Assembly: GCA_022897995.1 (NCBI GenBank)
Contig: GCA_022897995.1_4763.1
Strand: one strand, 5' to 3'
Length of the DNA: 64,000 nucleotides
Source of the DNA: a phage
Position 1 is the stretch's first letter. The number at the start of each line of letters is the position of its first letter. The position numbers were made by a program, and so were the translations under genes. A model generated the notes under the pieces. The model was not told the origin of the DNA and made no database searches. It saw only the letters and a program-made list of their open reading frames with translations. Shown piece after piece: positions 17,074 through 19,885 of the stretch.

Positions 17074-19885
17074 TCATTGTTAGACCTTCACGCGGCCTAT
17101 ATTCTTCGATGCCGTTTGCACCGTCATATATTACCACGGGCGCGTATTCATCCCCCATTTCATCTAATTCCTTGCGGAATATCTCGGAGGCGATTCGCAT
17201 TTCGTCTTTTCCTGCATATTCGGCGAATTTTTCTTGAGTTGTTAACCAACCAAATATTACCAGACTCATGACCAAATCATCGTGAAAACCTTCTTCTGCC
17301 GCCCAGCTTACCCCTTTTTCGGAGAATGTGCGCAATTCCTGAATAGTTCCTTTATGATTAATGATCAGTTTATCTTTTTCTATTAAGTCTTTTAGTGCCG
17401 AACATCCCATTGCTTTAGATCTTTTGGATTGTTTCATCCCTAGATCTATGAATGAGTCACAAATAATATTATCGTATTCCAGATCCATTGCAAGAGATTT
17501 AGCAATAGATACACCCGTACTATTTAGCTCGATATAAACTGGACATTCGTTATACATCATGAGATATTTAAAGACGATATCCGGTAATATTAAATGTGAC
17601 GTAGTATTGCTGTGATATACCGCAACCTGTTTATAAGGAAATTCAGTAATATCAATGATTTGCATTGCGTGGTAGTCTTGTCCTCGACCCTCTGAGCAAT
17701 CTAGTGTAGCAACATATTTTCTACCTTCTTTCGGTTTCTCAAACTGATAAAACCCGTTATCATTAACAACGTCAATAAAGGATAATCTTGATAGTGTGGT
17801 TGCCCTGATCAGAGTACCGGAACTACCGAAAAATTCAGCGTTATGTTCCTGTAAGAATTGCTCAAGACTAGATCCGGCGATCGCTTGAGATGACCACTCG
17901 TAACCATCATCGAATATATCAGCTTTATTGTAAAGACGTTCTTTAACAGAATGCCAAACCGCCTCATAAGGTACATAACCGCTTTTACCATCAATAGCCG
18001 ATTGCCAGATATCATAAAAGTGATTAAGCCCGTTAGGAGTCGTGGTCATAATCATTTTAGATTCACGACCAGAAGAAATTACTGGTTGGATTGCAAGGAA
18101 ACAATCGGTCCAGTTTTGAATAAATGCGCATTCGTCAATGTAGATAAACGAGAACGAGTTACCACGCACGGCATCAGGGGACGACGCATAAGCACCAATA
18201 CTTGATCCGTTTTCAAGAACAATTGATTTCTTGTTCCATTCAACAATACCAGGCTGTAAGAAGTCCGGCAATAGTTCAATTGCTTGTTTAGTACGTTCCA
18301 ATACTTCAACAGCCATTGACCCTTTGTGTGCCAGTATACCTACAGCTTTGTCTTTATTAAAGCAAACGTAGTGAGCAAGGAATATTGCTACAGCGGTAGT
18401 ATTATGAGTCGGAATAAATTCACGACCGCACAGATATAGTTTATCCTCGCTGTCAACCTGAATACATTTTACCGGACGAGATTCAACCGGATTAATTTCA
18501 CGAATAAAAAGAAAATCTGTTCTTGTATCTTCGCAAGAATTAATAAGATTTGCTTTCTTACGCTCCATTCGAACCGGACACACACCCTTATCTGCATATG
18601 CATTAAATGAAATTCTGTAATATACAGTACCTTTTACCACTTTTTCTTTCATTTTCGGCTTAAAGCCCAATCCGCACAACAGCGAATAAATGTCATCGAT
18701 AAGCGGTTTCAGTTTTAATGTAATTTCAGCATAACCATTTTTATTGATGCATCCGTCAGAATCCATGATACCTTGCAGTAATGCAGTTCGCTGATCAATA
18801 TCAGCGAACTGGTATTCCATAGGGATATGCTTATTGCCAGCAACGCCAGCGGTTTTAAGTCCTTCCCATAACCCATGCGCAGACGTTGTGAGAACGTTGC
18901 TATTGCGTTTATCTGCAAAAGTATATGTATGATAGCCTTGTTCGTTTAAATGCGTCAGAATGCCGCTATCGTCCTTATGGTGGGTGATTCGTGCTGCATC
19001 AGTGTGACCATCACCTAACCAATAACCTAAAGTATACGGATCAACAGGAAGAACTTTAGTTTCTCCCTTAATCGGTTTAGTCTTAGCGATTTTAAATCTG
19101 GATTGACCTTTGGTAGTAATACCCTTATCGACCATTTCCTGAGTTGTAACATCACGCTTGACATGTTTGTTGCCAACTTTTTCGTATACAGTCCAGATAT
19201 GGTCGGCATCAGCAACAACCTTAGCGCCAGTATCTAAAACAACTTCGTAGCACTTGCGATCATACTGGTATTCCGTTGCATATACAACATTAACTAAACG
19301 ACCATTAGGCGCATAGATCTGATCACCTTCTTTAATATCCCCCATACGTTTAAACCCATCGCTGGTAGGAATAGGCGTATTAACATCAAGTGCTTTACCT
19401 AGCTGACGACTGAGTTTATGTGCGCTCATGCGGTTTTCATGCATGATCTTAAGCATATCTTTCTGATAATCACGCAATTGTACTTTGATTGTACCGTAGT
19501 CGATGTGTGTAATTGCGCAATAGGTTTCGGCAAAATACACAATATCTTTACGGCATCGTTTCCACTCTGCGATCATTTCATGGGTATACTGAGTTTTAAT
19601 ATTCGCCCTTCGTAAGTTCTTTAACCGCATATAACGAGTGCGAATATTATCACTATCTTTAAAAAATTTGTAGTTTGTTGGATCTGTACTTTGCATCCTT
19701 ATTTTCTGAGGTCTGTTTAATTTCAGATAGTCAGAAAACTTTTTAGGATACCATTTATCATCATGCTTTGATAAAATCCATTCAATGCCGTTTGAATCAA
19801 TTTTAGTTTCTAGTGTAGACGGATGCGCAAGATGTAACGGGTGTTCATCCGTCGCCATTGCGTTAATCCCTTCAATCACGCTCAT
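17069..19885 (-). CDS. 17: terminase large subunit gp17, interrupted by an in-frame intein
   Basis: 938 aa versus ~610 aa in T4; extein parts align with T4 gp17; insertion splits the Walker A SRQLGK|TT; start overlaps gene 16 stop (ATGA). Confidence 0.9.
18401..19393 (-). mobile_element. intein (331 aa) with LAGLIDADG homing endonuclease domain inside gp17
   Basis: gp17 residues 165-495; begins ALDVNTP, ends ..PTHN with Thr at +1; block-B-like ADADHIW; LAGLIDADG-like LGYWLGDGH and [12 protein letters not shown]. Confidence 0.75.

Follow-up and report, generated by a model that had tools for sequence, protein, structure and literature searches.

What is the 331-residue segment that separates the Lys from the Thr of the ATP-binding loop in the large terminase of a T4-like phage? 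The question is raised by gp17, the large terminase gene on a stretch of phage DNA of 64,000 nucleotides (nt) (contig GCA_022897995.1_4763.1 of NCBI GenBank assembly GCA_022897995.1), hereafter called the window. Compared by megablast with 50,697 phage records, the window was found to belong to a Krischvirus (RB49-like, Straboviridae) coliphage. Its gp17 open reading frame (ORF) encodes 938 amino acids (aa), as a preliminary description of the locus had stated, and a 993 base pair (bp) in-frame insert divides the Walker A motif into SRQLGK/TT (here and below, a slash inside a protein motif marks an insertion point). We conclude that this insert is very probably a mobile class 3 intein with a two-motif LAGLIDADG endonuclease, lodged in the P-loop of a Krischvirus gp17, and that it would splice out of the 938-aa precursor. 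The parts of the gene are the following.

17069..19885, minus strand: gp17 (large terminase) precursor ORF, 938 aa with the intein; Pfam Terminase_6N and Terminase_6C; orthologue of RB49 and ECD7 gp17
19394..19885, minus strand: N-extein, gp17 residues 1-164, ending with SRQLGK (first part of Walker A); colinear with RB49 gp17
18401..19393, minus strand: intein, 331 aa from Ala1 to Asn331, gp17 residues 165-495; missing, as an exact gap of 993 bp, from about 45 Krischvirus records
17069..18400, minus strand: C-extein, opening with the +1 Thr (18398-18400, the Walker A Thr), followed by what remains of the ATPase domain and by the RNase H-like nuclease domain

The complete 2817-bp gene was detected by megablast in 12 records, at 94-97.6% identity: ECD7 (its GenBank and its RefSeq entry), kvi, FL15, FL04, AV108, MIZ4, MIZ5, ELT3, PTE-Eco09, Ec_Makalu_002 and Ec_Makalu_003. 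The best phage record for the window gp17 was FL15 (97.6%). Some 45 records, among them RB49, GEC-3S, Brandy, Whisky, Sf20 and pEJ01, matched in two pieces that total exactly 1824 bp, i.e. 2817 minus 993. Once the insert is taken out, the window gp17 is 607 aa long, which is the length of RB49 gp17 (1824 bp), and the alignment with RB49 runs without a gap through the junction; the same exact junction was obtained in the alignments with GEC-3S, Brandy, Whisky, Sf20 and pEJ01. Across the insertion site, the RB49 gp17 DNA reads CAGCTAGGGAAA / ACTACCGCT, and over 30 nt in either direction the window and the intein-less alleles agree in all but one silent base, at position -4. Given these exact bounds and its absence from sister alleles, the insert is a discrete, optional element.

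The preliminary description had placed a 331-aa insert inside Walker A, and residues 165-495 do map exactly to 18401-19393. The junction residues that it reported are all present: the flank on the N-terminal side ends with KLSRQLGK, the insert starts with Ala, and its C-terminal end, REFIPTHN, is followed by Thr. The comparison with intein-less gp17 orthologues that it had proposed confirmed the junction (gapless with RB49, 1824 against 2817 bp). It had also raised the possibility of a constitutive domain shared by relatives, which fails in view of the roughly 45 records that have no insert. A constitutive domain and an assembly artefact were both ruled out, as the 12 independent phage genomes and a protein cluster of 53 members share the architecture, and some 45 genomes have the exact deletion.

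That the insert is an intein was first apparent from its solved relatives. In a phmmer search of all PDB chains, the best matches were the Mycobacterium chimaera DnaB-1 intein (MchDnaB-1, 6rix, E 2.5e-18) and the M. smegmatis DnaB intein 1 (Msm DnaBi1, 6bs8, E 3.2e-17). Both fall in two stretches, intein residues 1-69 and 297/304-331, meaning that the N- and C-terminal splicing halves lie on either side of an endonuclease; the middle of the insert matched PI-SceI (E 4e-4). An AlphaFold2 model of the insert, built from an alignment of 43 sequences, reached a mean predicted local distance difference test score (pLDDT) of 96.3 and a predicted template modelling score (pTM) of 0.93. When this model was compared with the PDB by Foldseek, its entire length matched PI-SceI, TliVMA, PhoVMA and PI-PfuI (E 1e-19 to 6e-14, template modelling score (TM) 0.64-0.76), with PI-SceI at E 1e-19 and TM 0.76. 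Taken by itself, the splicing domain matched the DnaB mini-inteins of class 3 (target-normalised TM 0.78-0.86), and the endonuclease part matched I-DmoI. A Hint domain with blocks A, B, F and G is therefore recognised both in the two phmmer halves and in the superposition of the model. As to the C-terminal end, PTHN/T has the His-Asn pair expected before a Ser, Thr or Cys at +1; in 115 inteins extracted from database matches, which serve for all conservation counts below, the Asn is present in 115 and the His in 113. The initial reading of an intein with a LAGLIDADG domain in the gp17 P-loop is thus supported by homology to solved inteins, by Pfam LAGLIDADG_3 and by the fold of the model.

The endonuclease part of the insert is made up as follows.

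18524..19093, minus strand: LAGLIDADG homing endonuclease domain, intein residues about 101-290, delimited by Pfam, the PI-SceI match and the fold
19004-19030, minus strand: motif 1, LGYWLGDGH, intein residues 122-130, with Asp128
18812-18838, minus strand: block D-like motif GNKHIPMEY, between motifs 1 and 2; Lys188 and Pro191 invariant
18746-18781, minus strand: motif 2, intein residues 205-216, with Asp213

The Pfam model LAGLIDADG_3 (PF14528) matched gp17 residues 364-422 with 28.7 bits, for a cut-off of 22.5. The block-B-like motif and the two LAGLIDADG-like motifs noticed earlier were recovered, at intein residues 59-69, 122-130 and 205-216. In the model, the LAGLIDADG helices span residues 119-128 and 199-213; their last residues, Asp128 and Asp213, are conserved in 110 and 113 of the 115 relatives, respectively. 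In Krischvirus, the intein comes in a window type and an ELT3/Makalu type, with a DNA identity of about 96%. A comparison of the two types shows 9-16 synonymous and 2-3 non-synonymous changes in the endonuclease domain, for a ratio of non-synonymous to synonymous substitution rates (dN/dS) of 0.05-0.06; in the C-terminal splicing region, non-synonymous changes were zero. Judged from this ratio, the endonuclease domain is under purifying selection, as expected of an active homing enzyme, and the LAGLIDADG homing endonuclease is probably active.

The distribution of the intein was then compared with that of the gene around it. Between the window and ECD7, kvi, FL15 and AV108, the intein DNA differs at 5-6 of 993 positions (99.4-99.5% identity), whereas the exteins of the same genes are 92.5-97% identical, with 3-7.5% differences (Fisher p 1e-7 to 1e-16 against the intein). 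Expressed as synonymous divergence (dS), this amounts to 0.014 in the intein versus 0.15-0.32 in the exteins. Phages with the intein fall in three species of the International Committee on Taxonomy of Viruses (ICTV), namely ecd7, RB49 (phage kvi) and gec3s (Ec_Makalu_002), and the name-giving strains RB49 and GEC-3S are without it. Two silent markers next to the insertion site go along with the intein: T at position -4 is found in 6 of 7 alleles with the intein and 0 of 8 without (p 0.0014), T at +57 in 5 of 7 and 0 of 8 (p 0.007). The sequence that ECD7 and kvi have in common with the window comprises the intein and extends ~80 nt into the C-extein; from +81/+84 nt onwards they diverge by about 8%, with small indels; this switch means that a mosaic breakpoint lies just downstream of the intein. 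Base composition was uninformative on origin: the GC content is 0.40 in the intein and 0.37-0.40 in the exteins, that of third codon positions 0.32 and 0.34-0.37, and no foreign composition was found.

The low divergence of the intein, the dN/dS of its endonuclease and the linked silent markers in its flanks together indicate a recent spread by homing. In a mixed infection, the endonuclease of the freed intein would cut the intein-less gp17 alleles, and recombinational repair would copy the intein in, along with short flanking stretches. The observed pattern is the product expected of homing with short co-conversion tracts, general recombination alone being a weaker alternative.

Several points weigh against a mobile, splicing intein. 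In the Pfam scan of gp17, no Hint model matched at E≤1, and the NCBIfam scan returned weak matches to intein-bearing proteins only. The profile search proposed at the outset thus gave LAGLIDADG_3 above its cut-off and no Hint model; the lack of a Hint or intein profile, which the preliminary description had named as a ground for abandoning the intein, does formally hold for Pfam, and is overridden by the homology to class 3 inteins and by the fold. Given that class 3 inteins with crystal structures are directly homologous to the insert, and that the fold matches as well, the miss in Pfam and NCBIfam does not refute the intein: it is a sensitivity limit of the profiles for a divergent class. 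With respect to homing, the marker associations come from 15 sequences that are not phylogenetically independent; over the 187 nt of N-extein upstream of the site, hardly any variation separates the alleles, and this side therefore says little on co-conversion; and ordinary recombination of a gp17 segment could in principle explain the low divergence of the intein. Finally, it is from comparisons of sequence and structure that we infer both splicing and DNA cleavage by the window intein. Splicing of gp17 we infer also from the essential nature of the host gene together with the viability of the phage isolates; the ORF carrying the insert is intact in 12 independently isolated, plaque-forming phages.

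Recombination is the basis of the alternative that survives best, namely a splicing-competent class 3 intein whose endonuclease is inactive, inherited vertically and exchanged by ordinary homologous recombination among the mosaic Krischvirus genomes. Mosaic breakpoints are common here, as illustrated by the ECD7/kvi C-extein, and degenerate endonuclease domains have been described in some related class 3 terminase and Cas4 inteins (bioRxiv 10.1101/2025.01.02.630785). We nevertheless find this explanation unlikely: over 9-16 synonymous changes the dN/dS remains at 0.05-0.06, both catalytic Asp and the block D Lys-x-Ile-Pro are retained, the dS of the intein is roughly tenfold or more below that of either flank in four independent comparisons, and the intein occurs sporadically across three species.

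To which class does this intein belong? Class 3 inteins are defined by the lack of Cys, Ser or Thr at residue 1 and by the WCT triplet, made of a Trp at position 12 of block B, a Cys at position 4 of block F and a Thr at position 5 of block G; their +1 residue is usually Ser or Thr, and rarely Cys, while class 2 (KlbA type) inteins are without the WCT triplet (PMC2807308, Tori et al. 2010). In Msm DnaBi1 these residues were characterised by crystallography and mutation, the Cys118Ala mutant being splicing-dead (PMC6195587). The corresponding residues of the window intein, taken from the ungapped alignment over the matched stretches, are listed below.

19094..19393, minus strand: N-terminal splicing region (blocks A and B); residues 1-69 align without a gap to 1-69 of Msm DnaBi1 (6bs8) and MchDnaB-1 (6rix)
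19391-19393, minus strand: Ala1, Ala in 110 of 115 homologues
19250-19252, minus strand: Cys48, aligned with Cys48 of Msm DnaBi1, at least 90% conserved
19208-19210, minus strand: Asp62, Asp62 in Msm DnaBi1, 114 of 115
19199-19201, minus strand: His65, His65 in Msm DnaBi1, 115 of 115
19193-19195, minus strand: Trp67, Trp67 in Msm DnaBi1, 115 of 115
18401..18523, minus strand: C-terminal splicing region, with blocks F and G; the aligned counterpart of residues 304-331 in Msm DnaBi1 is 112-139
18464-18466, minus strand: Cys310, predicted block F nucleophile, Cys118 in Msm DnaBi1, 115 of 115
18401-18409, minus strand: Thr329-His330-Asn331, Thr137, His138 and Asn139 in Msm DnaBi1; Thr and Asn 115 of 115

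The window intein has Ala1, the complete triplet (Trp67, Cys310 and Thr329) and a Thr at +1, a position that is Ser or Thr throughout the family. Since the triplet is present, invariant in the family and aligned to that of Msm DnaBi1, the window intein is, on these residues, class 3. Of the two classes left open by the preliminary description, 2 or 3, the second stands, and the first is ruled out by the triplet, whose absence defines it. A class 2 (KlbA-type) intein with Ala1 would differ in its chemistry, the +1 Thr attacking the N-terminal junction directly with no block F Cys intermediate, and it shares with the window intein the missing N-terminal nucleophile. This is very improbable for a triplet that is invariant in all 115 relatives and superposable on Trp67, Cys118 and Thr137 of a class 3 intein that was crystallised and validated by mutation (PMC6195587).

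The route that follows from this assignment, with the chemistry of each step taken from PMC2807308, would be as follows. Translation of gp17 would yield a precursor of 938 aa in which the intein interrupts the ATP-binding loop. As residue 1 is an Ala, Cys310 of block F is predicted to be the first nucleophile: it would attack the peptide bond between Lys164 and Ala1, giving a thioester-linked branched intermediate. The N-extein would next be transferred to the side chain of the +1 Thr, cyclisation of Asn331 would free the intein, and an O-to-N acyl shift would restore the SRQLGK-TT P-loop in a normal gp17 of 607 aa. ATP binding and DNA packaging would be carried out by spliced gp17 only. The opposite proposal, in which the insert is an exapted, dead intein that stays as a permanent non-splicing domain of a 938-aa working terminase, is hardly credible, as it would put the Walker A Lys and Thr 331 residues apart, all splice-junction and catalytic residues are kept under purifying selection, and sister phages with 96-97% identical exteins function without the insert.

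If gp17 matures by splicing, the intein may also act as a post-translational gate. Splicing of Msm DnaBi1 is under redox and zinc control (PMC6195587, PMC7664689), and its Cys48, described as non-conserved but essential, is the disulfide partner of the catalytic Cys in a bond that blocks splicing (PMC6195587). The window intein has this Cys48, which is at least 90% conserved across its family, as opposed to "non-conserved" for DnaBi1. A Cys48-Cys310 pair could thus make gp17 maturation redox- or zinc-sensitive, a speculative proposal that we regard as rather doubtful. If true, the state of the infected cell would influence when DNA packaging starts or how fast it proceeds. No packaging machine is better characterised than the T4-type motor. 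With such a well-known motor and E. coli as a host, the gating idea is directly testable.

How much of this is new can be judged from the inteins already known. The closest solved relatives of the window intein, Msm DnaBi1 and M. chimaera DnaB-1 (6BS8/6OWN and 6RIX/6RIY; PMC6195587, PMC7664689), resemble it by an Ala1 start (ALALDTPLPT in their case), a block B of the form DxxH-x-W, Cys48, a block F PV(R/K)C(V/I)(E/Q)VD, a block G (V/I)PTHN, a +1 Ser or Thr, and insertion in the P-loop of an ATPase. They differ from it in being mini-inteins of ~140 aa without endonuclease in a bacterial replicative helicase, whereas the window intein, in a phage terminase, has retained a LAGLIDADG domain of 190 aa. 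The TerL inteins of actinophages (TerL1-a; LittleE, Omega, Cjw1) have the same host function, the same GK/T insertion point and the same combination of class 3 and LAGLIDADG (PMC5050341; bioRxiv 10.1101/2025.01.02.630785), and those of LittleE and Omega are 39% identical to the window intein over the full length. Their hosts are Terminase_1-type TerL, unlike the T4-type gp17 (Terminase_6N/6C) of a Gram-negative coliphage found here; in the Terminase_6-type TerL of mycobacteriophages, the intein is at the C-motif and not in the P-loop (PMC5050341).

More distant comparisons can be made as well. The DnaB intein of mycobacteriophage Bethlehem, the prototype of class 3 (PMC2807308), shares with the window intein the WCT triplet, the lack of a nucleophile at residue 1, the +1 Thr, the LAGLIDADG domain and a similar size (341 aa), and in both the block F Cys lies 21 residues away from the terminal Asn; it differs by Pro1 instead of Ala1, by Ser instead of Asp at position 7 of block B, and by its extein. 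PI-SceI (yeast VMA1), TliVMA and PI-PfuI have likewise a Hint domain with an inserted two-motif LAGLIDADG endonuclease (TM 0.70-0.76), but they are class 1 inteins (Cys1) whose hosts are archaea or eukaryotes; they possess an additional region for DNA recognition, and their identity to the window intein is only 14-17%.

Inteins that lack a nucleophile at their N-terminus were noted in 2009 in DnaB, RecG, SNF2 and phage TerL, mostly in the P-loop of ATPases (Tori et al., PMC2807308). Insertion between Lys and Thr of the P-loop was called "classic" by Kelley et al. 2016, who reported that several TerL inteins splice and that two cut intein-less alleles (PMC5050341). A 2025 preprint describes 287 class 3 inteins in actinophages, and extein switching between terminase and Cas4 through their similar nucleotide-binding sites (10.1101/2025.01.02.630785). 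The class, the P-loop target and the terminase host are therefore all established already, and the knowledge of inteins is unchanged. What appears to be new is the host, gp17 of a T4-like coliphage. Our literature search, whose coverage was incomplete and leaves earlier priority possible, found no description of an intein in gp17 of Krischvirus, RB49 or ECD7; according to a 2024 paper, inteins had not been reported in coliphages (PMC11162368).

A class 3 intein in the Walker A loop of the T4-type packaging motor of an E. coli phage makes a tractable system. It gives access to class 3 chemistry in a native extein, to homing in phage crosses, for which natural partners with and without the intein and with 96-97% identical exteins exist, and to splicing as a limit on, or a regulator of, DNA packaging. 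The records of intein-bearing gp17 also need an annotation correction. No record or source name in the 53-member cluster mentions an intein, and in three GenBank records, PP400778 (FL15), PP358550 (FL04) and PQ306574 (PTE-Eco09), gp17 is labelled "replicative DNA helicase DnaB", likely because the closest named relatives of the intein are DnaB inteins.

In the wider family, 227 proteins of the database are homologous to the intein and have its junction residues. Their hosts include large terminases of the T4, Terminase_1 and GpA types, many dCTP deaminases, and PD-(D/E)XK nucleases, and nearly all of these inteins are found between G-K and Ser or Thr whatever the host protein. Most of the metagenomic relatives (33-36% identity) are in dCTP deaminases, at RLEGK/SSLGRLGL, a site that is not a Walker A loop and has in common with it the G-K/S dipeptide context; in the PD-(D/E)XK nucleases, the insertion site is DWK followed by Thr or Ser. 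From these insertion points, the family appears to follow a Lys-Ser/Thr junction across unrelated hosts. Among sequenced phages, homologues were found in 827 records, the 12 Krischvirus copies being 96.7-99.7% identical in amino acids and the next best 41%. The GK/T point of T4-type terminases is also occupied in three other phages, Alishewanella phage Slicko01, Synechococcus phage B23 (Kyanoviridae) and the jumbo coliphage JNE01 (Asteriusvirus), by inteins that are 33-41% identical and have the Ala1, the Trp, the Cys and the Thr-His-Asn.

The identification of the host gene as a T4-type large terminase relies on its Pfam matches (Terminase_6N, 134.8 bits; Terminase_6C, 82.7 bits) and on the gene order gp16-gp17-gp18, within a minus-strand block of late genes arranged as in T4, gp18-gp17-gp16-gp15-gp14-gp13. 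The Terminase_6N match begins only at gp17 residue 496. In T4, the Walker A motif presumably occupies residues 161-167; no paper with the literal T4 string SRQLGKT was found in the literature search. An identical 938-aa protein is on record as "terminase family protein" (EJA6573266.1), and in the cluster of 53, every member is 938 aa long and has an intact ORF.

A second element, unrelated to the intein described here, was observed in gp17 of other phages. It is a 1288-bp insert at Walker B (IYIDE/C...SHN/CAFIQNW), found in Escherichia phage kaaroe (MN850574, 1501-4612), also in TB34, and in seven phage records in all; it is absent from the window. This insert breaks gp17 into two frame-shifted ORFs. 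The N-terminal ORF comprises gp17 residues 1-256, a Cys1 N-intein piece of ~26 aa, a zinc ribbon and a TnsA-like PD-(D/E)XK endonuclease (PF08722, 34.5 bits). The C-terminal ORF opens with a C-intein of 107 aa matching CatC, an engineered split intein of the atypical kind (6DSL, E 1.3e-11). The element appears to be an equivalent, in cultured phages, of the "Terminase" fractured gene with atypical split that Dassa et al. 2009 described (PMC2677866), with the difference that here the endonuclease and the N-intein form one in-frame fusion. None of the 40 records listed by megablast had a gene with both gp17 inserts. Elsewhere in the late block, several Krischviruses differ from the window: in kvi, Ec_Makalu_002 and TB34, a free-standing homing endonuclease gene, annotated as SegB-like in Makalu_002, adjoins gp14. 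In the window, the spacer between gp14 and gp13 is only 36 bp long (21994-22029).

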